Assembly (NCBI GenBank): GCA_023247705.1
Contig: JAHFFY010000008.1
Coordinates: 664 to 64,663 of the forward strand
DNA length: 64,000 nt
From: Candidatus Omnitrophota bacterium
GTDB lineage: Bacteria; Omnitrophota; Gorgyraeia; Zapsychrales; JAHFFX01
Direction of reading: 5' to 3'
The first letter of the stretch is position 1, and each line of letters starts with the position of its first letter. The translations under genes were made by a program, and so were the position numbers. Of this stretch, positions 3,974 through 54,129 are shown piece after piece. The notes below the pieces were generated by a model, which saw only the letters and a list, made by a program, of their open reading frames with translations, did not search any database and was not told the origin of the DNA.

Positions 3974-6832
3974 TTATCGTTTTAATTTAAGCGGGACATG
4001 GAGAACATAGGTCGTCCCTTCTTCCAGATGGAAGGTATTCGAGATTTTAATTAATGGAAGATATTCCATAGGAAGAGAATTCACATCGATAAAAACGGTG
4101 TGTTGCCCCTCGGAGATATCATTAAAGAAATAAACGCCCTGAAAATCCGTGATGGTTGTTTCCCTATTATCCAGAGATATCTTAATCCGGGGAATGAGGA
4201 CATCCTGGCTGTCCAATTGCCCATTATGATTTTGATCATAATAGACAACCCCATAAATCCCGGAATGCGACGTTAAGGGAAAATTGAATTTTTGCGTCTG
4301 GTGATGGAATATTTCTACATTTTCATACATTGAGGTAGAAACGATATATTTGTCCGGAACTGTTGCAAGATCCAAATCAATCGAAATCTTTTTCGCCCTC
4401 ACCTTCTTCTGATACCATCCGGTATGATCACTCACCACGGTGCTGTTGCCTACTCTGATCGTGACCCCCGATACCCCCGGTTCATCGCGGTCCTGTATTT
4501 TATTTTGGTTCAAATCATTAAAAACCGTTCCCTCAATCGTTCCCACCGGACTCCAGTTAAAAGGCAAATCCCAGGACGAGCGGATCCCCCAGCGGATATC
4601 GGCTTCATTGTAAGCGCTGCGGCTGGGACTCTCGGCCCAGACATTTCTCAAACGGGTATCAATAAAAAACTGGAAATCATCCGTCGGCCGAAAATTAAAA
4701 CCGATATTTCCCGTCAAGCTATCTTCTCCGGCCAGGAAACTCAACAGGCTGTCCGCTTCCTGTTCGTTGCGGTAAAAAAGCCCCATATCCATCATCCAGA
4801 ATTTACTTAATTCTTTGGAATAGTTCAACCCCGTTGAAAACACCTGCGGGTTTAAATGATCCCCGGACAATTTTTCTTCCAGCCAAGAATATTCATAATC
4901 GGCGAAATAGGATAAATTTTTAATGAGCGGGAGACGAAAACCAGCCGTTGCGGAATACCGGTCAAATTCCGAAGAAGGAGATAACGTAAAACGGCTTCTC
5001 TGATAGTTCACCCCGATAAACGTCGATAAATACCGATCGTTTAGAATACGAAACATCTTGGATAAAGTATTATTCAACCTGAAATTCCGATGAGGCGACA
5101 GGACGCCTGGGGTATCTTGATAATAAATAGAACTTCGCCAATTGGAATCTTGGGACAAAGCGACTCCGGCCGAAGTGCTCAAATCGTAATTCAGACTGTC
5201 CGGATGATCCTGGTTAGGCAAAAAATTGTCTTGATATAAATCGAGATTGGAATAAACATCAAAATGAGGACGGGTAAAACTCCAGACAGCGGTTCCTCCC
5301 ACTTCTCCTCGATTGGCAGGAAAATTGGTCACCGTGACAAAATCTTTATCAATGTCTCTAAAATTCAAATTTAATCTGTTTTTCGGTGTCCCAAATTCAG
5401 TCCGTATTAAACCAGCAAAATTATCTTCATCATAGGCGAGTTCACTGGCTAAAAACGCTTTGGCGAATTTATGTTCCGTTACAACCGAATAAGCTCTCTT
5501 TTTTAAATAATCCGCTCGATGTGATCCATACCCTTGAGCATAATTAAGAGAATATTGATGTGAATCATGCGGGAACAAAGTCACCCTGCCTCCCTCAATA
5601 AACGATTCAACCCTTCCAAATGGATCTGAAGCAAGATACCCAAAAAGAAGACTCTCCCTTCCCCATAACACTGTATAATTAATGTTGCGATTAAAAGCTT
5701 CTGCGTTTAGAAGAACTCCTCGAAAATATTTTCCTTCCAAAGTCAAAGGAGAAAAAGCTTGAGAGGCGTCAAATCCTCTTATACTAAAATTTTTAAAATT
5801 CCCGATCTGACCATTCGTCAGGCCGACTGAATATCCTGTCACCTCGGTCGATTCGCCGAACCGGTTAAAAATCGTATACGTATCAAAATTGCCATACGGA
5901 GTATTTCCGGCAATATTGGTTATTTGGGTGAAATGTAGATTCTGCCGTTCGAGATTCGGTAGGTTATTTCCAATATAATAGGAACTCCAGTCCGAGGCAT
6001 AACCGAATCGAAACGGCTCGATCACTTCATATTGCGCGGCCTTTTGTTGCGCTGGCGTCAGAATCTGCGCTGGGAAATTGACATTGACATTAAACGTCCA
6101 TCGTCCCCGCGCATCCCAGACGTGCAGGAACGTGCCGCCTCTCAACAATCCGATGATTTTAATACGATTCGAATCAAGTCGCTCTACACTTATGAATTGC
6201 GGAGAAACCACCAAAAATTTTTCAATATTCTCGCCTTTAAGAGTAACCTCTTGCTGAATTTCCAGGTTTAAAGCCGTATCCGGCTGGGTCAACCAAAGTT
6301 CATCGTTTAAATCAATATCTTTACTTTGAATCGGTGCCGCCGAGACTGCCCCTGGGGATCCCTTCGCCTGAGCCCGAGGCGCTGGCCATTCTCCCATCGT
6401 GGATACGCTGGGGGCTGCTTGCTTTTTTTGTCTTTCTCCTTTTTTCGGGGGAAATAATTTTTGTTTGGTCGTTCCAGTGGTCTCTTCGGTGGGAACTCCG
6501 GGAGGAAATTCTTTCGTTTTTGTCTGAGGAAAAGGTTTTAGCTCAACGATATTGGATTTCAATTCGACAATCGCCACGCGTCCTTCCTGGATCCGCTTGA
6601 CGAAATTGACCCATTGCCTCGGCTCATCCGAGGACGGATTGGCCAAATGAGCTAATTTAAAATACAAAATTGCTTTTTCGTATTGTTCTTGATTGATTGC
6701 GTCCTTACCTAAATCAATCAGCTCTTTAAAAGAAAGGGATTCTTCACCCTGACTATAAGCCGATAAAGAACAAAAAAAGAGAAAAAGAGTACAGACCAAA
6801 ACAATGGAGAAAAATTTTTTTTGCATAATCAC
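3974..6832 (-). CDS. Large outer-membrane protein: signal peptide, TPR-like N-term, Pro-rich linker, T2SS/T3SS-pilN-like domain, beta-barrel, two C-terminal SdrD-B/CNA-B-like domains (usher-like candidate)
   Basis: 952 aa; LVVSPQFISVERLDSNRIKIIGLLRGGTFLHVWDARGRW resembles the CpaC/secretin N-domain; Y/F/N/G/S-rich middle; GTVFNDLNQNKIQDRDEPGVSGVTIRVGN and GVVYYDQNHNGQLDSQDVLIPRIKISL are CNA-B-type repeats; no secretin signature. Confidence 0.6.
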   Translation of the reverse strand: MIMQKKFFSIVLVCTLFLFFCSLSAYSQGEESLSFKELIDLGKDAINQEQYEKAILYFKLAHLANPSSDEPRQWVNFVKRIQEGRVAIVELKSNIVELKPFPQTKTKEFPPGVPTEETTGTTKQKLFPPKKGERQKKQAAPSVSTMGEWPAPRAQAKGSPGAVSAAPIQSKDIDLNDELWLTQPDTALNLEIQQEVTLKGENIEKFLVVSPQFISVERLDSNRIKIIGLLRGGTFLHVWDARGRWTFNVNVNFPAQILTPAQQKAAQYEVIEPFRFGYASDWSSYYIGNNLPNLERQNLHFTQITNIAGNTPYGNFDTYTIFNRFGESTEVTGYSVGLTNGQIGNFKNFSIRGFDASQAFSPLTLEGKYFRGVLLNAEAFNRNINYTVLWGRESLLFGYLASDPFGRVESFIEGGRVTLFPHDSHQYSLNYAQGYGSHRADYLKKRAYSVVTEHKFAKAFLASELAYDEDNFAGLIRTEFGTPKNRLNLNFRDIDKDFVTVTNFPANRGEVGGTAVWSFTRPHFDVYSNLDLYQDNFLPNQDHPDSLNYDLSTSAGVALSQDSNWRSSIYYQDTPGVLSPHRNFRLNNTLSKMFRILNDRYLSTFIGVNYQRSRFTLSPSSEFDRYSATAGFRLPLIKNLSYFADYEYSWLEEKLSGDHLNPQVFSTGLNYSKELSKFWMMDMGLFYRNEQEADSLLSFLAGEDSLTGNIGFNFRPTDDFQFFIDTRLRNVWAESPSRSAYNEADIRWGIRSSWDLPFNWSPVGTIEGTVFNDLNQNKIQDRDEPGVSGVTIRVGNSTVVSDHTGWYQKKVRAKKISIDLDLATVPDKYIVSTSMYENVEIFHHQTQKFNFPLTSHSGIYGVVYYDQNHNGQLDSQDVLIPRIKISLDNRETTITDFQGVYFFNDISEGQHTVFIDVNSLPMEYLPLIKISNTFHLEEGTTYVLHVPLKLKR

Positions 6833-30744: not shown

Positions 30745-31710
30745 CTACGAAACACCCACCCACCGTTCCAAATCGCAGCCGTCGGAACTAAGTTCGAAAA
30801 TACCGATCCGCGTTCCGTCGCCATAAAGTTTTCCGGTCGCCGGATCGCGGGCGACGCGGGTGATCCATTCATACCCGAGATCAAAATTTTTTTTCGTAAA
30901 CCATTTTTGCGGCATCACATTCACGGTCCCAAAGGCAGGCCGAATCTCAAAGATCGCGTAGGCGGCGTTTTCTTCAGGATACGGGACCGCCAGAAGAATT
31001 TCATCGAGCGTTTCAAATTCTTTTGGGAAACGGAAATGGTGCAACCCTTCCTGCAATGTCCCGGGAACCAATATCGATGAAACCGGATTAGCCAACGAAT
31101 AATACGGTTCCTTCGAGTTCCGAAAATTCGCAGGGAGATCCTCCAGATGAAAGACCGGCATTTTATCCGGATCAAAACACAATAATTGAATCTGGTCTTT
31201 TTTGGAAAACCATAATCCCAGATAATGCGGCGATACCGCGAAGGCGCGCGTATACGCGTTAAGCGCCAAGATAAAATTCTGCGGTTCGTTTTGTCGGGAC
31301 AATGTCACCAAGAAAGAATGTCTTCCATTCGTTCCATGAAACGTCCAGACATAATGATGTTTGGAGGCGCCTTTGATCGTGGGGAACGTCTGCCAGTACC
31401 ACGGGGCCGGCCCGATGGCATTATTAATGACGGTCTGAACCGAGGCGCTGACATTGGCCTTTTTAAAAAAATGCCGCGGAGCGGCAAAGTAGATCTTGCG
31501 CAAGACCAGATAAAGCGAAATCATCAAGACAAAAAAAACAACCAAAGCGATTTTGCCCTGGACCGGTGCTTCTTTAAACCATAACGTTAATTGATTAACA
31601 ACCAGGATCAAACAGAAGGTCGAGAAAAGATAAATCAATTTTCTGAACAAAAAAAAATTTTTGATATACAAATGTTCTTCTTTGAATTTTTTGAGGAATT
31701 GCAGGTTCAT
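30745..31710 (-). CDS. Hypothetical membrane-anchored protein (321 aa)
   Basis: Two N-terminal TM helices then a soluble domain; no recognisable motif. Confidence 0.5.
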   Translation of the reverse strand: MNLQFLKKFKEEHLYIKNFFLFRKLIYLFSTFCLILVVNQLTLWFKEAPVQGKIALVVFFVLMISLYLVLRKIYFAAPRHFFKKANVSASVQTVINNAIGPAPWYWQTFPTIKGASKHHYVWTFHGTNGRHSFLVTLSRQNEPQNFILALNAYTRAFAVSPHYLGLWFSKKDQIQLLCFDPDKMPVFHLEDLPANFRNSKEPYYSLANPVSSILVPGTLQEGLHHFRFPKEFETLDEILLAVPYPEENAAYAIFEIRPAFGTVNVMPQKWFTKKNFDLGYEWITRVARDPATGKLYGDGTRIGIFELSSDGCDLERWVGVS

Positions 31711-31821
31711 CCGCCGGATTTATCCAAAAGGTTATTATTGGGCCGCATTGTTCATCATCATATTACATCTCCCTGAAAAAGCAATTTCAATTTGGCTTTC
31801 GCCAATCAAACATGTTTTCTT

Positions 31822-32208
31822 CTAGTTCAACTGCGCGATGAGAAAGCCCAAACGGAACACAGCAAACCCGATCACCACACTCAACAGAATATACAGCAAT
31901 GCGCTCCCCGCGGCCCCCGCCTTGTTCAACTCATCCGTCTCTAGAATAAACGTCGAGAAGGTCGTAAAGGCCCCGCAAAACCCGGTCATGAGAAACAATT
32001 TCAAGTCACTGCCCAATAAAAATTTCTTTTCGGCCAGGCCTGCCAAAAGACCGATGATAAAACATCCCAACCCATTGACGACCAAGGTGCCGTAAGGAAA
32101 AACCGGTCCGGCAATACGGGTGATCCATCCGGCCAAAAGATACCGTGCGATCGTCCCCAAAGTCCCGCCGGTCATCAGACAAAACAATTTATTCCATCCC
32201 ATCTTCAA
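31822..32208 (-). CDS. crcB: Fluoride channel CrcB/Fluc
   Basis: 128 aa; four TM helices; GTLGTIARY and GFCGAFTTFSTF motifs. Confidence 0.85.
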   Translation of the reverse strand: MKMGWNKLFCLMTGGTLGTIARYLLAGWITRIAGPVFPYGTLVVNGLGCFIIGLLAGLAEKKFLLGSDLKLFLMTGFCGAFTTFSTFILETDELNKAGAAGSALLYILLSVVIGFAVFRLGFLIAQLN

Positions 32209-32591
32209 CCAACCTTTCGGGGTGCAATCAACGCGGCGCTGAAATACAACAAGAGCCCCAATCCGCCCGCAAAGATCAAAACGACAAAGATGATCCGGAA
32301 GATGACCGGATCCAGATTAAAAAATTCGCCCAAGCCCCCGCAGACCCCGGCGATCTTGCGGTCCCGGTCGGACAAATAAAACCGTTTATGCGCAACGACC
32401 GCGACCGTTCCCTCGTTTTCAGGGACCACCATCCACATCACGAAATAAACCAAAATCCCGATTCCCCCTAAAACAGCAACCAGGACAAACGCAATCCGGA
32501 GGATGACCGGGTCCATTTGAAAATATTCTGCCAACCCCCCGCAGACCCCGGCGATTTTACGTTCTTGTTTGGATCGGTAGAGTTTTTTCAT
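32205..32591 (-). CDS. Tandem PspC-domain membrane protein
   Basis: Two repeats KIAGVCGGLAEYF...DPVILRIAFVL / KIAGVCGGLGEFF...DPVIFRIIFVV; overlaps crcB by 4 bp. Confidence 0.75.
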   Translation of the reverse strand: MKKLYRSKQERKIAGVCGGLAEYFQMDPVILRIAFVLVAVLGGIGILVYFVMWMVVPENEGTVAVVAHKRFYLSDRDRKIAGVCGGLGEFFNLDPVIFRIIFVVLIFAGGLGLLLYFSAALIAPRKVG

Positions 32592-32594
32592 AGA

Positions 32595-33356
32595 TCAAGA
32601 ATGTATTCTTTCTTGCATTTCTTGACGACTGGTTGTATAGCAAATCTTCGCAATAGACTCATTCTCTAGCTTTTTTTGGTTAGCTAATGACGGATCAAAT
32701 GATACTAAATTATATTTATCCCTTTTTTGAGCACTTCCATATTTAATCCCATCATATCCTTTAGCTTTCAATAACTCTGCTACATATTGAGTTGGGATGT
32801 ATGAACAATTGTCATCAGGGATGTTGGGCACAGAAAAATACATATTTAACCCCCACCACAATAACCCCTCTTCCTCCGCAATTGTTATTGCATTGTTTTT
32901 TTTCTTCTTTATATATTCCTCTAAAGAGAACGTATCGGTAAAAATATCAACTATTGCTATATCTCGCTTTAATTCAAACAAAGCAAGAGTTAACGAAGCT
33001 CCTATATATGGACGAGTCTCCGCTATAGCTGTATCTTGATCCTCGGCTAAATACAAATGAGAGATCCCTTTAGGATTTGCCCTACCATCAAGAGATTTTT
33101 CTCTTGGAGGAGCGTTCATTTCTGCTGATGTTAAAAGATCTCCTTTAATTACATTGTTTTCTAGTTTAGGACCATGCCCGATCCTTGCTCTCCAAAACTG
33201 TGTTTTTTTATTAATGATTTGTCTTCTATTTTTTGCCGAGTCAGCAATTGTTATTACAAAATTGTCTAATTCTGGATTTAAGATAAATCTATTATTATTT
33301 ATTAAGTAATTGAATAATTTCTCTAGATTCTCAAATGAATTTTCTGATAAAACCAT
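32595..33356 (-). CDS. RES-domain protein (putative NAD+-targeting toxin), orphan, very AT-rich
   Basis: 253 aa; FWRARIG...GRANPKGISHLYLAEDQDTAIAETRPY matches the RES R/E core (GGRWNxxGxxxLYxAxxxxxAxxE); C-terminal SYIPTQYVAELLKAKGYDGIKYGSAQKRDKYNLVSFDP matches the Ser motif. GC by eye ~32% versus ~52% in flanks. Confidence 0.6.
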   Translation of the reverse strand: MVLSENSFENLEKLFNYLINNNRFILNPELDNFVITIADSAKNRRQIINKKTQFWRARIGHGPKLENNVIKGDLLTSAEMNAPPREKSLDGRANPKGISHLYLAEDQDTAIAETRPYIGASLTLALFELKRDIAIVDIFTDTFSLEEYIKKKKNNAITIAEEEGLLWWGLNMYFSVPNIPDDNCSYIPTQYVAELLKAKGYDGIKYGSAQKRDKYNLVSFDPSLANQKKLENESIAKICYTTSRQEMQERIHS

Positions 33357-33543
33357 ATCGTTTTCTCCTGAAAACTTTAGATAACAATTTCAGATTAAAT
33401 ATCCTCCCAGGATTAGCCCAATTATTTACGCCTTTCCTCTAAAATAACCTTGCTCAAAGATAGATCACGGATAACAAGAGGTTTGACGGTTCTTTTCCAA
33501 GCAGGTTGTTTTTGGGAAGAGGTTTTCATATTTTGTCTATTTT

Positions 33544-34548
33544 TCATTTTCCCCCCACCCCCAATAAATCTACGACCTTCCCTACCTTGCGCCTACAAGC
33601 GGTTTTGTAAATGAGGTCCGCGACGGCGACATCCTGGATCGCCAGGCCGGTTGAATCGAAGACCGTCACTTCTTCCTGGGAAATCCGTCCGGACTTCTTT
33701 CCGGCGACGATCTCGCCTAACTGCGCGTAAATATCCGCCCGGGATAAAAGACCCAAACTGACAGGGACATTGATTTCTCCACTGTGCGCAGCCTGGGCCC
33801 AATCGTCCACCACCACTTTGGCGTCGCGCAGGATCTTCGGATCGAGTTCCTGTTTGCCAGCGGCGTCGGCGCCGATCGCGTTGATGTGCGTGCCTTTCTT
33901 GATCCATTCGCGCCGGACAATCGGCGCGCGCGAAGGGGTCGAGGTCACAATGATGTCGGCCTCTTGCACGCACGATGCGATCGTGGCGGAGGCGCTCATG
34001 ATTTCACGGGGGCGTCGCATCTCTTTGATAAACCGTTTCACTTCGCCTTCCGACTTGCCCCAGACGTTCACTTCCCTGATTTTAAAAATCTGCCGCAGCG
34101 CCGCGAGCTGGCTGTGGCCTTGAATGCCGCAGCCGATGAGCGCGACACGTGAAGAATCTTTGCGGGCCAGATATTTCGCGGCCACCCCGCTGGCAGCGCC
34201 GGTACGCAGGGTCGTCGCGTATGTCCCGTCCATAATGCTTAAAGGAAATCCTGTTTGTGGATCACTCAAAATAATGACCGCCATCACCGCCGGAAGATTA
34301 TATTTGGCGTTCCCGGGATGCGCGTTCACCCATTTCAGACTGCATTTATTTAATCTGGAAAGATACACCGGCATGGCGCGGAAATCACCGTCAAATTTCT
34401 CCAGCTCCAGGTAAATCTTTGGTGGCATCTGCGCGTGTCCCAGCCCGTATTCCCTAAAAGCCGCTTCAACGGCCGGGATCGCCTTTTTCATATCGATGAG
34501 TGTTTGAATGGTTTTCTTGTCAAGGATAAGCGTTTGGAATTTTTTCAT
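33544..34548 (-). CDS. Ornithine cyclodeaminase / mu-crystallin family protein
   Basis: 334 aa; Rossmann VALIGCGIQGHSQLAAL and overall OCD-family similarity. Confidence 0.8.
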   Translation of the reverse strand: MKKFQTLILDKKTIQTLIDMKKAIPAVEAAFREYGLGHAQMPPKIYLELEKFDGDFRAMPVYLSRLNKCSLKWVNAHPGNAKYNLPAVMAVIILSDPQTGFPLSIMDGTYATTLRTGAASGVAAKYLARKDSSRVALIGCGIQGHSQLAALRQIFKIREVNVWGKSEGEVKRFIKEMRRPREIMSASATIASCVQEADIIVTSTPSRAPIVRREWIKKGTHINAIGADAAGKQELDPKILRDAKVVVDDWAQAAHSGEINVPVSLGLLSRADIYAQLGEIVAGKKSGRISQEEVTVFDSTGLAIQDVAVADLIYKTACRRKVGKVVDLLGVGGK

Positions 34549-34876
34549 GGTTTATTGGATTGCTTGAAAGTTATTCTGTTAGGACTTTCGCGTTTGGCGA
34601 TCTGCTTCGTTGCCGCCTCCGGTGCTCGCTCAACGTACTTCTGTGTATCGCTTCGCTCCTCGGCAGCGCCTCGCATCTCATCCAAACGCGAAAGTCCTGT
34701 CTGTTTTTTCAGACAGTTCATTTTATCCCAGAGTGCATGGCACTTCAACTTAAGAATTATAAAAGAACTCCGATCCTTTGGATTTCTTTCCTGACTTATC
34801 ACTTGATAACCAGAGCAATTTATTGTCTAATGAATGTGATTTTTTTTAATCATCCTCATAAAGGAATTTACAAAGC

Positions 34877-35824
34877 ATGAAATCGTCCGTTGACGAAGTC
34901 AGTCGTCTCATGAAGAAGGCCAATGACAACCTCGCTTTGGTTGTTAAAGGCAAACCGGAGAAAATCGAGCTGGTTATCCTAGCCCTGGTCGCCGGAGGGC
35001 ATATCCTGATCGAAGACATCCCGGGCGTTGGAAAAACCACCTTGGCCAAGGCCCTGGCCAAAACGATCGATGGGACATTCAACCGCATTCAATTCACGCC
35101 GGATCTTCTACCGACCGACATCACCGGGATCAATATCTTTCGACAAACCGACAATCATTTTTCGTTTCACCCCGGACCGGTCTTTGCCAACATTGTACTC
35201 GCGGATGAAATCAACCGCGCCTCACCGCGTACCCAGTCCGCGCTTCTGGAGGCCATGGGAGAAGAACACGTCACGGTCGATGGCACGTGTCATCCGCTCC
35301 CCTCTGCGTTCATTGTCCTAGCGACCCAAAATCCGATCGAATATCACGGCACTTATCCGCTGCCCGAGGCCCAACTCGACCGCTTCATGCTACAGATCGA
35401 CATGGGATATCTGCCTCAGGAAGACGAACAAAATCTCCTCATCAATCGCACCCGGGAGGAACCGGTTGAAAAAATTTCGTCGGTCCTGTCTTTGGCCGCG
35501 CTCAAAGAATTAAAATCCTTTGTCGACACGATCCTCCTGGAGGAATCGATCAGCCAATATATGCTGGACATCGTTCAGGCGACCCGGCATCATCCGCAAT
35601 TACGGTTAGGTGTTTCGACCCGGGGAACACTTTTATACGCAAGGATGGTCCGCGCGCGGGCGATGCTTCATCAACGCGATTATGTGATCCCCGAGGATGT
35701 CAAACGGCTGGCGGTCCCGGTGTTGGCCCACCGGATCCTGCTCGATACGAAATCGCAATACGAAGGATCCTCCCGGTCCGAGATCATTGCGCAGATTATT
35801 GAAAACATCAAAATTCCCAAATAA
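34877..35824 (+). CDS. MoxR-family AAA+ ATPase
   Basis: 315 aa; Walker A GVGKTTLAKALAKTIDGTFNRIQFTPDLLPTDITG and MoxR C-terminal region. Confidence 0.9.
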   Translation: MKSSVDEVSRLMKKANDNLALVVKGKPEKIELVILALVAGGHILIEDIPGVGKTTLAKALAKTIDGTFNRIQFTPDLLPTDITGINIFRQTDNHFSFHPGPVFANIVLADEINRASPRTQSALLEAMGEEHVTVDGTCHPLPSAFIVLATQNPIEYHGTYPLPEAQLDRFMLQIDMGYLPQEDEQNLLINRTREEPVEKISSVLSLAALKELKSFVDTILLEESISQYMLDIVQATRHHPQLRLGVSTRGTLLYARMVRARAMLHQRDYVIPEDVKRLAVPVLAHRILLDTKSQYEGSSRSEIIAQIIENIKIPK

Positions 35825-49771: not shown

Positions 49772-50938
49772 CTAATTAATAGTAGAGTATACCAGCCCCT
49801 CACAATAACTAATTTTTAATTCCTCATCGTTCAAATTTCTTAAACTCTCAAAATCTGCTCGGTCTTTTACAAATTCAACAATTCGTTCACGGGGCGTATT
49901 TTTGTAGCTTTCATAAAAGAAATCAAACAAATCAATAAGGTCTTTTGCTTTCCGTCCTTGCCGGAGAGGAACGCCCAAAAATGTATCCGGTTGCCTGCGG
50001 TAGGCAATTAATTCTTCATCGGTCATTGGATTTGTGCAATGCACCCGTTCCCCCGTTACAGTACGATATACTCCCCATATTTTCTTTTCATGCCCCGACA
50101 CTGTGGCCGTTTCTAAAATCGCCTCTACGTTTTGACCTTCCTTATCAGGAATCAAATATTTTTGTCCAATAATTAGCCGTGGTGGCATATCTTTACCGGC
50201 AAAAGCGAATTCAGGATATTCTCCGTCAAACGTTGATGGAATTTCTTCATGCTCACATACTGATCTAACCAAATCAAACATATCAATATGTTTTTCCCGT
50301 GCCTTCAATGCTTCACGCAAACTTGTAAACTGAAAATCGAGACTGAATTCTGGAATCTTAAAGCCATGTGCAAATCCAGCCTTATGCTCAGAAATTCCCT
50401 CTAAATCATATTCAAAAGGATGATTGGTAACAAAAAGATATGCCTTCTGATCTTCTTTCCATGAAGATTCCTTCTGTTTAATCCCTGCAACAATATCCGG
50501 CATTTTTCTCAAAAAATCAGGAACGTTGATATCCACAAAAACGATTCTTTCATGTTTCGCTTGTTTAATTAAAGCATCCCCTATTTGCTTACTAATCCCT
50601 ATATTGTCTTTATGGGGCTGTCGTACTTTTGCCTCTATAGAATATTTTCTACCAGTTTTGGGAGATACCGCTGTAAATTCACAATGAGTAGTCCGGCTAT
50701 CTTCTTCGTTTTCTATCTCCAAACTAAAACCAGCTTTAATAAATTCGGTGGCAACGTATGTTTCATACTGCGCACCGCGAAAATTATTTTTATCTTTCAG
50801 TCTTCCTAATAAACGATCCTGAATCTTTACGTTATGCCCCAAAAGATACAAATTATAGGAAAGATTCATGATCGCAGAAACAGCACCAGACATCGGCGCA
50901 TCATTTATAGACCCATCAACGCTTTGATGCTGTTGCAT
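49772..50938 (-). CDS. Hypothetical protein (388 aa); in the same frame as the upstream SEC-C ORF across a single TAG
   Basis: AT-rich; an open 25-codon in-frame bridge (GQGEFAKPFEDRHPLIQWNEQAHKY) links it to 51014-51319. Confidence 0.5.
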   Translation of the reverse strand: MQQHQSVDGSINDAPMSGAVSAIMNLSYNLYLLGHNVKIQDRLLGRLKDKNNFRGAQYETYVATEFIKAGFSLEIENEEDSRTTHCEFTAVSPKTGRKYSIEAKVRQPHKDNIGISKQIGDALIKQAKHERIVFVDINVPDFLRKMPDIVAGIKQKESSWKEDQKAYLFVTNHPFEYDLEGISEHKAGFAHGFKIPEFSLDFQFTSLREALKAREKHIDMFDLVRSVCEHEEIPSTFDGEYPEFAFAGKDMPPRLIIGQKYLIPDKEGQNVEAILETATVSGHEKKIWGVYRTVTGERVHCTNPMTDEELIAYRRQPDTFLGVPLRQGRKAKDLIDLFDFFYESYKNTPRERIVEFVKDRADFESLRNLNDEELKISYCEGLVYSTIN

Positions 50939-51013
50939 GTATTTATGCGCTTGTTCATTCCATTGAATCAGCGGATGCCGATCTTCAAACGGCTTGGCAA
51001 ATTCTCCTTGTCC

Positions 51014-51319
51014 CTAATCTTTTCCAAAGACTGAGCGAATATATTCAAACAAAAAATCATGAAACGTCTTCCATTTCTGTGAATAATACATCCTGTTACC
51101 AACAGCAACCATGCGATAGCCCTTAAACTCAAGCGATATTATTGACCTGCCTAACCCTTGTTGTTTTTCTACCTGCATTTGTTTTGCTTTTTGTCGTTCA
51201 AATTGCAAACGAACATCGTCGGGAATCATATCAGATTTACCGTAACAGCATTTTTTATACTTTTTCCCACTACCGCAAGAACAGGGGTCATTTCTTCCAA
51301 CTTTTTTCATTGGTCTCAA
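51014..51319 (-). CDS. SEC-C motif domain protein
   Basis: 101 aa; [18 protein letters not shown] is the SEC-C metal-binding motif. Confidence 0.55.
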
Positions 51320-51475
51320 TTCTCACTAAACGCCTGAAGAATTCCAAGAACGCATATCGAATTCACAATAATAAGTCGGGACATGTCCGATCTATTATGA
51401 TCTTCTTTCCCAATTCAACGGAAGTCCAGCCATTGCGTTAGGTCTTCTCTTCGCCCAAAAGTCTTTACCGGTCGA

Positions 51476-51880
51476 CTAAAACACCCGGGAGACTGTGGTC
51501 ATGTGTCCGGATGAATTTTCGGCCATGGCCGAAAATCTGACCTGCGCGGTTCGAATTTTCATACCGCGATCAGAACGGACACGATAACCAACAGCCAGTA
51601 TCATATCAAGATTATAAAAATCAACATTCCTAGAAACCTGTCTTGAACCCTCAGTTTGAACTATTAGGAATTTCCGAATAGTTGCCGTACCTTTAAGCTC
51701 GCCTTCATCGATAATATTCTTAATATGCTCATTAACAGTCGGCACAGAAACTTGAAATAACTCGGCTATCATTTTCTGGGTAAGCCATGCCGTTTCGTTT
51801 TCAAGACGCACTTCCAGCTTTATTTTTCCATCCTCAGTTTGATAAAGAATCATTCCTGATGTTCCGGTTGCTTCATTCAT
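51476..51880 (-). CDS. RhuM-family (Virulence_RhuM) protein, C-terminally truncated fragment
   Basis: MILYQTEDGKIKLEVRLENETAWLTQKMIAELFQVSVPTVNEHIKNIIDEGEL...FYNLDMILAVGYRVRSDRG matches the RhuM N-terminus; full-length RhuM is ~330 aa but this ORF stops at 134 aa. Confidence 0.55.
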   Translation of the reverse strand: MNEATGTSGMILYQTEDGKIKLEVRLENETAWLTQKMIAELFQVSVPTVNEHIKNIIDEGELKGTATIRKFLIVQTEGSRQVSRNVDFYNLDMILAVGYRVRSDRGMKIRTAQVRFSAMAENSSGHMTTVSRVF

Positions 51881-51944
51881 CGATAAAACCTCCCGACATG
51901 AACCTGAAATTTATTCTAAAAAAATCTCCCGGGCAAACGAAAGA

Positions 51945-52694
51945 CTATCCTTTTTTTCCTGAGCCGGCTTTCAATTCCTTCTGGGCCGTTTCCAGCCACT
52001 GTTTATGTTCTTGACGGTAAAACGGCGGTGAGATTTTACAATTTTTAATGATGGCGGCGAATATTTTTTGGGCCTCATCCGTTCTTCCCAGACTTTTGAG
52101 AAACAGGGCGTGGCGGCAGCGGGCCTCTTCCCCGACATAAGACTGGCTCAAGGTTTCGTACTCCTTGAGAGCGGCTTCCTTCTCTCCCAATTTTTGTAAA
52201 ACCACCGCGTACAAAAGATGGTCTTCCTGGCGGCTGAATTTTTGCGGGGCGCGGTCCAGGCTCAAAAGGGTCTCTTTGGATTTAAGGTAATCCTCCTGGC
52301 AAAAAAAAGACTGGGCCATTAAACTCAACACCTCCGGGTCATCGCCATGCCAGCCGTCCCGGCACACTTTCAGCGTTTCGGTGGCCTGGGGATACTGCCG
52401 GCAATCCATATAGGCGCGGGCCAGGGCGAGACGGTTTTTTACGGAATCGCACAGGTCGAGTTCTTCTTTGAGTTGGGTGATCTTGTGGCTGGGGACCACG
52501 ACCCCCTGCACGGCGGTCGTAAGATCGTCTACAGTGCCGCGCAGGTCCGGCAAGACCTCCACGATCAAATACACCGCACAGCCCACAAAAGAAAAAACCA
52601 GGATGATCCACAGCCATTGACTCCGTCCGGTTTTGTAAGCGTGCACCGCGCAGACAATTTGTAAAAGGATGGAGATCGAGAGAGGAAGATACAT
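51945..52694 (-). CDS. Membrane-anchored PLDc_N-like + TPR protein
   Basis: 249 aa; ILLQIVCAVHAYKTGRSQWLWIILVFSFVGCAVYLIV (PLD-nuclease N-terminal-type TM hairpin) followed by TPR-like helices. Confidence 0.55.
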   Translation of the reverse strand: MYLPLSISILLQIVCAVHAYKTGRSQWLWIILVFSFVGCAVYLIVEVLPDLRGTVDDLTTAVQGVVVPSHKITQLKEELDLCDSVKNRLALARAYMDCRQYPQATETLKVCRDGWHGDDPEVLSLMAQSFFCQEDYLKSKETLLSLDRAPQKFSRQEDHLLYAVVLQKLGEKEAALKEYETLSQSYVGEEARCRHALFLKSLGRTDEAQKIFAAIIKNCKISPPFYRQEHKQWLETAQKELKAGSGKKG

Positions 52695-52978
52695 GATATT
52701 ATTGGGGGTAGTTCATTTTATTTTTAAAAACGGGGGTCAAGTTGATCTTCTAAACAATACGAAACTTTTGTCACGTTACCACACTTCCCCGGTCCAGTCA
52801 AGAAACCGTCAACTTCTATTGGAAAAACCTCCTCAACACCCGGTGTTGAGGAGGTCCATCTGCCCAAATGATCTGTTGACTTTTAAACATTTTTGGCTAT
52901 AATTTCTTCATTCCTCATCAGCAAATTTTATCCCACTCCATAACAATAATGGGATGTGATCTTTAGATAAAAACTTAT

Positions 52979-53051
52979 TCCCCTGTAGCTCAGTCGGTAG
53001 AGCGGTTGGCTGTTAACCAATAGGTCCGAGGTTCGAGCCCTCGCGGGGGAG
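52979..53051 (+). tRNA. tRNA-Asn (anticodon GUU)
   Basis: Cloverleaf by hand: acceptor TCCCCTG/CGGGGGA, D-arm GCTC-AGTCGGTA-GAGC, anticodon arm GTTGG-CTGTTAA-CCAAT, variable AGGTC, T-arm CGAGG-TTCGAGC-CCTCG, discriminator G; CCA not encoded. Confidence 0.9.
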
Positions 53052-53065
53052 TTTTTCAGGACACA

Positions 53066-53106
53066 AAAGCCCTTCGGCTATATCGTTGAAGGGCTTTCTT
53101 TCTGTT
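53066..53106 (+). terminator. Rho-independent terminator after tRNA-Asn
   Basis: AAAGCCCTTCGGCTATATCGTTGAAGGGCTTT followed by CTTTCTGTT. Confidence 0.6.
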
Positions 53107-53151
53107 GGGTAAAAGAGTCACGTCATTTATGAGCTTACCCCCATTAAGCAA

Positions 53152-54129
53152 GTGACATCGGTTAAACAAAGCGCGGCCGAGTACCATAGGTTAATTGTAC
53201 GAATCGGAGGTAAAGTGAACATGTCGCTGAAAGCTATTATTAAAAAAATGATGCATAGTCCGACACTCAACCCATTTATTAGAGGGGGTATAAAGTTATT
53301 TCGTTCAGAGAAACTAAATGATTTTTTGATGTACCGAGTGCCCATTTTGGGGAAGTTCTCATTAAAAGTGACGAATAGCAAAAAATTGATTCTTAAATCC
53401 AGCGGGAATGACGCCATAGCTATAAAGCTCTATTGGAAAGGAATGGACGGGTTTGAACCAGAGACATTTCCTCTTTTTCGAAGCCTTTTGAAGCATTCAA
53501 AAACTTTTTTTGATATCGGGGCAAATATCGGAATTTATTCGTTGGTCGCAGCCGTTGAAAACCCTCAAATACAAGTCCATGCCTTTGAACCATCCCCCTT
53601 GCCGTTAAAAAGCTTTAAGGAAAATCTGAATCTGAATAATCTAAAAAATATAAAGATCCACTCGACCGCAATTACGAATTATGACGGAGAAATAAAACTA
53701 TTTATCCCAGCCTCACGCAGTATCCCGACATCTTCCTCAACTCGTCATGGTTTTAGAGAAAATTGCAAGGAAATTACTGTCCCGGCCGGAAAATTAGACT
53801 CTTTTGTTGAGAATAATAATATTGGGAATCTGGATTTAATTAAAATTGATACGGAAGGAACCGAGCATCTTGTTTTTGGGGGAGCAAGTAATGTTCTGGC
53901 GAACCATAGACCAATTATAATTTGTGAGGTCTTGAAGGGCCTAACGGAAACCCCGCTTCAAGCTGTTTTCGATAAGAATGAATACCGCTCTGTTTGGATT
54001 TCCGGTGAAGGATTAATTGAGAAAAGCATTGAAGGTGATCCCTTCTATGAATTTAATAATTTTTTGTTTATTCCAAAAGAAAGATTTAATTTTTTCAAGA
54101 ATATCAATCGCATGACAAATTATTCATGA
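53152..54129 (+). CDS. FkbM-family methyltransferase, AT-rich
   Basis: 325 aa; FDIGANIGIYSLVAAV...VHAFEPSP is the FkbM SAM-binding region. Lies on the 3' side of tRNA-Asn; the true start may be internal (MSLKAII). Confidence 0.7.
   Translation: MTSVKQSAAEYHRLIVRIGGKVNMSLKAIIKKMMHSPTLNPFIRGGIKLFRSEKLNDFLMYRVPILGKFSLKVTNSKKLILKSSGNDAIAIKLYWKGMDGFEPETFPLFRSLLKHSKTFFDIGANIGIYSLVAAVENPQIQVHAFEPSPLPLKSFKENLNLNNLKNIKIHSTAITNYDGEIKLFIPASRSIPTSSSTRHGFRENCKEITVPAGKLDSFVENNNIGNLDLIKIDTEGTEHLVFGGASNVLANHRPIIICEVLKGLTETPLQAVFDKNEYRSVWISGEGLIEKSIEGDPFYEFNNFLFIPKERFNFFKNINRMTNYS

Follow-up and report, generated by a model that had tools for sequence, protein, structure and literature searches.

An intact, partnerless RES-family gene of foreign composition in an Omnitrophota genome: a candidate self-restrained conflict effector

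Few known toxins destroy NAD+ as efficiently as RES enzymes, whose experimental study has so far been as toxin–antitoxin pairs. In the Xre-RES modules (MbcTA, ParST, NatRT and the P. putida module), an adjacent upstream gene encodes an antitoxin with an Xre helix-turn-helix (HTH) and a DUF2384/MbcA/ParS-type domain, and both MbcT (PMC6436930) and NatT (PMC11535050) act by phosphorolysis to ADP-ribose-1''-phosphate. HEPN/RES-NTD1-RES fusions (PF18870 plus PF08808) have also been described and were predicted to be abortive-infection-type effectors (Anantharaman et al. 2013, Biol Direct 8:15); the same work predicted RES to be an RNase, an assignment that NAD+ phosphorylase activity has since replaced. 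What the RES family does physiologically has been called unresolved (Santi et al. 2024, PMC11535050). Here, we analyze a RES-family gene in a 64,000-nucleotide stretch of contig JAHFFY010000008.1 from a Candidatus Omnitrophota bacterium (hereafter, the window), where a sequence-only reading had proposed an orphan toxin gene inserted between ocd and pspC-crcB. Unlike the toxins of the Xre-RES modules, this gene has no antitoxin gene of that type beside it. We conclude with high confidence that it is an intact, partnerless and compositionally foreign RES-family gene. The broader proposal, that it is a laterally acquired, self-restrained, partnerless RES effector that depletes NAD+ in biological conflict, is one that we favor by a narrow measure.

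The RES protein and its predicted fold

The gene encodes a 253-residue protein that matches PF08808 over residues 88–228 (57.4 bits against a cut-off of 23.2; E=2.3e-15) and contains GRANPKGISHLYLAEDQDTAIAE at residues 91–113, followed by the motifs YIPTQ, DGIKYGSA and NLVSF, so that the RES assignment made from these motifs stands. All listed homologues likewise carry PF08808 (COG5654 family). At 46 of the 53 positions that are highly conserved in the family, all putative catalytic residues among them, the protein agrees with the consensus, and its seven deviations (W11L, F14L, Y100H, I170L, F196L, N198A and L219S) spare those residues. By contrast, the NCBIfam model for Xre/RES toxins, NF049844 (Res_ParT_toxin), scores only 12.9 bits on this protein against a cut-off of 110. 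A family-profile search of the 64-kb window found no second RES copy, this gene being the sole match. The exact protein (P0001) occurs on public metagenome-assembled genome contigs of an uncultured organism, and an identical 1.3-kb stretch that includes both junctions is present in two other public assemblies, which may not be independent of the sample behind the window. Base-for-base identity across both junctions in these two assemblies argues against a chimeric assembly, and we rejected that explanation.

The predicted fold of the protein is an ADP-ribosyltransferase-like RES fold. An AF2 model built on 26 family members, which also make up our alignment A1, reached a pLDDT of 85.6 and a pTM of 0.83, and its top Foldseek matches in the PDB were MbcT (6fkg_B, E=6e-5), NatT (8qnl_C), the diphtheria toxin catalytic domain and the P. 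putida RES toxin. The TM-scores of the best PDB matches are modest (0.3–0.5). Five residues, R56, R92, Y102, E113 and S208, are invariant across the 26 members and, as judged by motif spacing, putatively correspond to R27, R47, Y58, E69 and S126 of MbcT. For example, R92, Y102 and E113 are separated by 10 and 11 residues, compared with 11 and 11 for R47, Y58 and E69 in MbcT, residues whose roles have been probed by mutagenesis. Mutagenesis of MbcT showed that R27, R47 and Y58 are essential (Freire et al. 2019, PMC6436930).

Comparison with the two best structural matches shows what is shared and what differs. MbcT, the toxin of the MbcTA RES-Xre module (Rv1989c/Rv1990c; PMC6436930), is the closest (Foldseek probability 1.0), shares the Pfam RES domain and has putative equivalents of its five residues invariant in the subfamily, but it is only ~12% identical to the window protein, with TM-scores of 0.38–0.50. 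Moreover, MbcT has 186 residues, whereas the window protein adds an N-terminal hairpin, two insertions and a C-terminal tail, and its gene lacks an MbcA-like antitoxin. The insertions, at residues 60–87 and 138–176, enlarge the RES core. NatT of the P. aeruginosa NatR–NatT system (PMC11535050), the second-best structural match (252 columns), is a 250-residue RES toxin whose core is similarly enlarged, in its case by a ‘Flap’ insertion that alters control of the toxin. NatT is reported not to be toxic on its own (Santi et al. 2024, PMC11535050), and in this respect sets a precedent: a RES protein need not be constitutively lethal. Unlike the window gene, however, natT depends on an adjacent gene for the Xre-type NatR.

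Approximately 50 residues precede the first RES strand (FWRAR at residues 53–58), and the RES fold begins at about residue 52, which agrees with the N-terminal extension that the sequence-only reading had described. This segment forms a hairpin of two helices (residues 7–20 and 28–44) modeled at a pLDDT of ~90, and alignment A1 shows that it is conserved throughout the subfamily with the pattern W/F..Y...NR[YF].L. The closest relatives of recognizable architecture are NTD1-RES fusions of 340–390 residues from Bacillus and Paenibacillus (31–41% identity, E down to 1e-25). Four relatives at this level of identity (P0037, P0045, P0049 and P0112) align over 72–92% of the window protein, placing them and it in the same RES clade. 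The fusions share with the window protein the core motifs FxRAR, GRANPxGISYLYLA, AIAE and YIPTQ, also have no Xre antitoxin, and contain a pre-RES helix that aligns with that of the window protein. By BLAST, window residues 5–57 correspond to residues 124–175 of P0112, a stretch that runs from the end of NTD1 through the linker to the first RES strand, and the FWRAR region aligns with the FYRAR sequence that starts the Pfam RES match in P0112. Three of these relatives (P0112, P0037 and P0045) carry PF18870 at residues ~25–130, whereas the window protein is ~100 residues shorter and has no NTD1 body. PF18870 (HEPN_RES_NTD1) was not detected in the full protein at E<=1 or in its N-terminus at E<=10. 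In four of 17 family N-termini, the first helix weakly matches PF18870 positions ~102–128 of 131 (best 18 bits; cut-off 27.4), and at most the window protein keeps a trace of the last NTD1 helix. We also considered whether the hairpin is a fused DUF2384/Xre-type antitoxin and rejected this idea, as neither permissive Pfam scans of the 17 N-termini nor a PDB profile search produced a match of that kind. The C-terminal tail, modeled as a strand and a helix, is present in most family members. It is missing from the closest homologue, P0002 (212 residues, 57% identity; positions 5001–5639 of locus L097), which ends just past the conserved serine without the C-terminal strand and helix.

A RES fold could be put to uses other than draining NAD+. 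The protein might be a target-specific ADP-ribosyltransferase, or might generate an NAD+-derived signal, with a regulatory effect or one aimed at proteins or nucleic acids of foreign origin. RES belongs to the ADP-ribosyltransferase superfamily, and published RES activities include protein ADP-ribosylation by ParT as well as NAD+ phosphorolysis; Piscotta and colleagues are said to have found in 2019 that ParT modifies phosphoribosyl-pyrophosphate synthetase by ADP-ribosylation. The two insertions and the extra terminal elements could form a substrate-binding surface, and identity to characterized RES toxins is only ~12%. However, the residues important for phosphorolysis by MbcT, both arginines and the tyrosine included, are all conserved, and relatives bear the NCBI label ‘RES family NAD+ phosphorylase’, which is assigned by homology only. 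Although it survives better than the other alternatives considered below, we regard this one as unlikely.

Absence of a partner gene across the subfamily

The subfamily to which the window protein belongs is very large and free of antitoxins. The family profile matches 7,966 clusters at 50% identity with E<=1e-3 and 1,502 with E<=1e-30, and the matches in the best 150 clusters are almost all full-length, in proteins of ~240–280 residues. Members occur in bacteria of the candidate phyla radiation, Omnitrophota, Proteobacteria, plasmids and elsewhere. We gathered 82 homologous loci and compared up to two open reading frames (ORFs) on each side of the RES gene. When the 237 neighboring ORFs were clustered by BLAST, 216 were singletons, and the only clusters represented at multiple loci were TPR repeat proteins and tyrosine integrases. 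Among the 84 immediate neighbors, which we scanned against Pfam and PADLOC, no Pfam family occurred more than twice and none was an Xre/DUF2384 antitoxin, and we therefore rejected the existence of a conserved partner gene among these neighbors. Because no partner recurs in the 82 loci, the lack of an antitoxin is a property of the whole RES subfamily and no accident of the window locus. At that locus, the spacer between ald, the upstream flanking gene, and the RES gene holds a single 41-residue ORF, and the ORFs scanned out to ~8 kb include no HTH, Xre or DUF2384 gene. The earlier claim that no antitoxin is adjacent is thus borne out. ‘Orphan’, in the sense of lacking an antitoxin, is also apt, but this is the normal state of the subfamily; similarly, the generalization that a RES toxin gene normally comes after an antitoxin gene holds for the Xre-RES modules and fails for the partnerless ~250-residue proteins. 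The window is accordingly a clean case of this subfamily, one gene among housekeeping genes, and what was found there is ordinary for the subfamily: a single, probably laterally acquired, putative conflict gene whose relatives are already annotated.

A less probable alternative than an ADP-ribosyltransferase is that the gene encodes the toxin of a two-gene module whose antitoxin is not recognizable as such, being a small, fast-evolving upstream peptide, an RNA or the product of a gene elsewhere. In the window, the candidates would be the basic 41-residue ORF (33422–33547) or a transcript of the spacer, and our view is limited to 64 kb of the genome. Several homologues do have tightly coupled upstream short ORFs without a Pfam match, including L017 (63 residues, gap 7), L029 (95 residues, gap −1), L057 and L059 (59 residues, gap 0), L058 (70 residues) and L076 (56 residues). 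These short ORFs are unlike one another, however, and some may be artefacts, as ORF calls took the longest frame; at many other loci, long gaps or opposite-strand genes lie upstream. The 41-residue peptide itself, the only product of a search for small ORFs upstream of the RES gene, has no Pfam match and no counterpart beside any homologue (best E=0.18 among 2,380 flanking reading-frame fragments of the homologous loci), and we rejected it as an antitoxin. The spacer RNA is not unusually structured (folding z = −1.2) and has no Rfam match. We consider a hidden antitoxin quite unlikely.

The neighborhoods also bear on function. Among the three closest homologues with usable context, P0002 (L097) has a type I/IIG restriction-modification pair on one side and SIR2_2 and Schlafen genes on the other; L003 contains two Mrr nuclease genes and ParD/PemK; and L004 contains nucleotidyltransferase genes (NTP_transf_2/Polbeta), HEPN_Cthe2314, DUF5677 and YhcG. 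Neighbors at other loci include Shedu SduA, a TIR effector, QatC, AbiU2 and BrnT. This association of the subfamily with defense genes is at most suggestive. The family also appears to be mobile: integrases occur near four other members and transposases near some, and related sequences are found in 285 plasmid records, 210 of them conjugative and mostly from Enterobacteriaceae. On Aminobacter plasmid pAM01, for example, a 257-residue stand-alone RES copy adjoins traA. The sole Enterobacteriaceae-type plasmid example inspected, from a Citrobacter plasmid (L098; AP022382.1, 47270–48670), has a larger architecture unlike that of the window protein, with the RES region inside a 466-residue ‘hypothetical protein’ near ParB, resolvase and DnaB.

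Composition, lateral acquisition and proposed function

Among the 64 window ORFs of at least 100 codons, mean GC content is 46.9% (standard deviation 4.9) and mean GC content at third codon positions (GC3) is 53.6% (standard deviation 9.8). At 33.2% GC and 26.0% GC3, the RES gene is the lowest of the 64 in both measures, ~2.8 standard deviations below the mean, whereas ald (54.8%), pspC (51.7%) and crcB (50.4%) flank it at much higher GC. The low-GC block has sharp boundaries, at the pspC start codon on one side and the ald stop codon on the other, so that its extent and its AT-richness relative to the flanks are as the sequence-only reading had given them; the AT-richness of the 187-nt spacer is not in itself diagnostic, as other intergenic spacers here are also ~32% GC. 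In the family at large, RES genes average 4.5 GC points below their own flanks (lower at 48 of the 59 loci, within L003–L096, that had sufficient flanking sequence; Wilcoxon p=1.5e-7). Such a bias might arise because donors of low GC often pass the gene on, or because selection acts on the RES gene itself. The window gene, at −14 points, has the fourth largest deficit of the 59. The nearest homologues (57%, 49% and 47% identity) lie on contigs with genes of 32–39% GC, several with flanks of 36–38%, consistent with acquisition from a low-GC donor. We infer both the direction and the timing of the transfer.

Composition and family mobility thus partly support a single-gene insertion between ald and pspC, as first proposed, but the site bears no physical mark of one. 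Neither a convincing flanking repeat nor an integrase or tRNA gene lies at the gene, the sole tRNA in the window (52979–53051) not being adjacent, and the databases contain neither a syntenic relative nor an empty site. The closest available relatives of ald (P0122, P0125, P0127 and P0135; 64–70% identity) and of pspC (P0242 and P0245; 66–68%) adjoin different genes, a scan of genome contigs with ald found relatives of at most 55% identity, none syntenic, and an exact look-up of pspC returned only same-strain contigs, all with the RES gene. An imperfect direct repeat of 13 nt, exact over a core of 8 nt (TGATCTAT), occurs at 32590–32602 and 33460–33472, 870 nt apart. These copies bracket the RES gene and ~100 nt of leader, placed as the copies of a target duplication would be, and one of them covers both the stop of the RES gene and the start of pspC. 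Nevertheless, we rejected this repeat as a target-site duplication, as 13 comparable repeats occur in 1.5 kb, the level expected by chance; inverted repeats at the gene were also short and at chance level. An integron cassette was rejected as well, because the 3-nt gap between the RES and pspC genes leaves no room for an attC site.

The missing insertion marks, together with a spacing from pspC typical of a normal operon and the family-wide AT bias, which may make the anomaly partly intrinsic, would fit a native, vertically inherited gene of atypical composition. This explanation strikes us as very unlikely. The deficits of 14 points in GC and 28 points in GC3 are the most extreme in the window and large even for the family, the best homologues are at most 57% identical and lie on scattered, unrelated contigs with none at an ald–pspC site, and integrases and transposases occur near other members. 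Weakest of all is the suggestion in the sequence-only reading of a decayed toxin–antitoxin module, an Xre-RES remnant that lost its antitoxin and is inactive or silenced: despite the missing antitoxin, a few non-consensus substitutions and a rare-codon, AT-rich composition that could hold expression low, it is most improbable for a full-length ORF with all invariant residues, whose product scores far below cut-off on NF049844 and has NTD1-RES fusions rather than module toxins as its closest relatives of recognizable architecture, in a subfamily that lacks the partner throughout.

The other option in that reading, a solitary NAD+-depleting effector, fared better, with its defense or abortive-infection role being argued by association. 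Our proposed model treats the gene as intact, as acquired laterally, and as one of a widespread group of ~250-residue stand-alone RES enzymes that consist of a hairpin and a RES/ADP-ribosyltransferase-like core with insertions. By homology, the core would bind NAD+ and cleave off nicotinamide, acting as a phosphorylase or an NADase, and uncontrolled activity would drain NAD+ and stop growth. Since the subfamily has no conserved partner gene, restraint would have to come from within the protein (by the N-terminal hairpin, the inserts or oligomerization), from low expression, or from a need for some outside trigger, for instance a component of a phage or plasmid. The gene could then act as a one-gene conflict or abortive-infection effector. 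We infer the phosphorolysis, the self-restraint, the trigger and the defense role alike, and we advance this functional reading, a self-restrained NAD+-depleting conflict effector, tentatively and at slightly less than even odds. Its logic would resemble that of the DSR1 and DSR2 SIR2 proteins and of TIR or SEFIR effectors, in which one polypeptide with a built-in sensor stays inactive until triggered and then depletes NAD+ to abort infection, and RES homologues do co-occur with SIR2, TIR, Shedu and restriction genes at some loci. The likeness is confined to this logic. The window protein has an ART/RES fold, is much smaller, and has no obvious sensor domain and no PADLOC model.

Several observations weigh against the functional reading. 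First, a literature search found no biochemical or genetic data on any member of the partnerless subfamily, nor any experiment tying a RES protein to phage defense; similarly, no RES toxin–antitoxin system had been linked to immunity as of a recent study (Santi et al. 2024, PMC11535050). Second, the protein matches no family in PADLOC-DB v2 at E<=1, the surroundings in the window are housekeeping genes rather than a defense island, and many homologues adjoin housekeeping genes such as those for Hsp70, PurD, MlaE and ClpS. Defense models match only ~6–8 of the 84 immediate neighbors, a raw count rather than an enrichment. Third, non-consensus residues occur in the hairpin (W11L and F14L) and beside the active site (Y100H), and the active-site loop (residues 87–97) was modeled by AF2 with low confidence. 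Finally, sequence profiles reach no solved RES structure, MbcT included (PDB profile search, E<=1), so that the mapping of catalytic residues rests on motif spacing and the low-TM fold match. The unmarked insertion site counts on the same side.

More broadly, the question raised by this locus is what keeps a partnerless NAD+ phosphorylase harmless and what switches it on, and it belongs to the family rather than to the window. One answer, which we offer as speculative and on balance doubtful, is that the ~250-residue partnerless RES proteins are one-protein abortive-infection systems, held inactive in cis by the hairpin, inserts or tail and released by a phage or plasmid cue. If this were true, these in-cis elements would amount to a functionally fused antitoxin, an immune role would be shown for a RES enzyme for the first time, and NAD+ depletion with formation of ADPR-1''-phosphate would join the TIR, SIR2 and SEFIR repertoire.

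Flanking genes and other features of the window

The genes around the RES gene, ald, pspC and crcB, are host genes outside the RES cassette (Table 1). The upstream neighbor, called ocd in the sequence-only reading, does belong to the OCD/mu-crystallin family, but passes the equivalog cut-off of TIGR02371 for archaeal-type alanine dehydrogenase (452 bits against 409) and is thus better named ald than ornithine cyclodeaminase; its best homologues are Omnitrophota proteins with 60–70% identity, which places the host in an Omnitrophota lineage whose close relatives have yet to be sequenced. Other ORFs scanned within ~8 kb are housekeeping genes: BamE, DUF4440, a ZIP transporter, DUF2062 and MoxR/DUF58/transglutaminase.

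Table 1 Features of the RES locus, in window coordinates
Feature	Position	Strand	Basis
RES-family gene, 253 aa plus stop	32595..33356	-	ORF call, ATG start, Pfam RES
N-terminal helical hairpin, residues 1-51	33204..33356	-	AF2 helices 7-20 and 28-44, alignment A1
Predicted RES/ADP-ribosyltransferase-like catalytic core, residues ~52-225	32682..33203	-	Alignment A1, Foldseek
Putative active-site codons	R56 33189-33191, R92 33081-33083, Y102 33051-33053, E113 33018-33020, S208 32733-32735	-	Codons verified
C-terminal tail, residues 226-253, plus stop codon	32595..32681	-	AF2 strand 225-234, helix 243-252
AT-rich spacer, ald stop to RES start, 187 nt	33357..33543	-	GC 34.8%
Alanine dehydrogenase ald (OCD/mu-crystallin family, 334 aa), upstream flank	33544..34548	-	TIGR02371, GC 54.8%
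pspC (32205-32591) and crcB (31822-32208), downstream flank	31822..32591	-	Pfam/NCBIfam, GC 50-52%

The RES gene has its own Shine–Dalgarno sequence (AGGAG at 33365–33369, 8 nt ahead of the ATG), a gap of 3 nt follows the RES stop before pspC begins, and pspC and crcB share 4 nt. A crude scan, limited to sigma-70 promoters, predicted no sigma-70-like promoter and no terminator between ald, RES and pspC. With a ribosome-binding site of its own but no recognizable promoter or terminator, the RES gene probably depends on read-through from ald and shares a transcript with pspC and crcB. The crcB gene, which encodes a fluoride exporter, sits behind pspC and RES in an apparent single transcription unit. 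Fluoride riboswitches often precede crcB; we rejected one ahead of RES-pspC-crcB, as there was no Rfam match in 31500–35000. At the gathering threshold, Rfam found only one tRNA in the window, and it found nothing meaningful at E<=5 in that same interval. The pspC gene encodes two tandem PspC domains, and a 72-nt direct repeat within it (32301–32372 and 32502–32573, 79% identical) betrays the duplication.

Elsewhere in the window, a second low-GC patch (49772–54129, 37–42% GC) flanks the tRNA, which is on the plus strand, and is probably a tRNA-associated island. The patch contains a 388-residue ORF without a Pfam match, a 101-residue SEC-C-motif protein, a 134-residue RhuM N-terminal fragment and an FkbM-type methyltransferase (53152–54129). 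Finally, a DUF5677 protein is encoded on the minus strand at 916–1824 (GC 38.5%); DUF5677 also adjoins RES homologues in L004 and at one other locus, which hints that the gene at 916–1824 comes from the same pool of mobile conflict genes.

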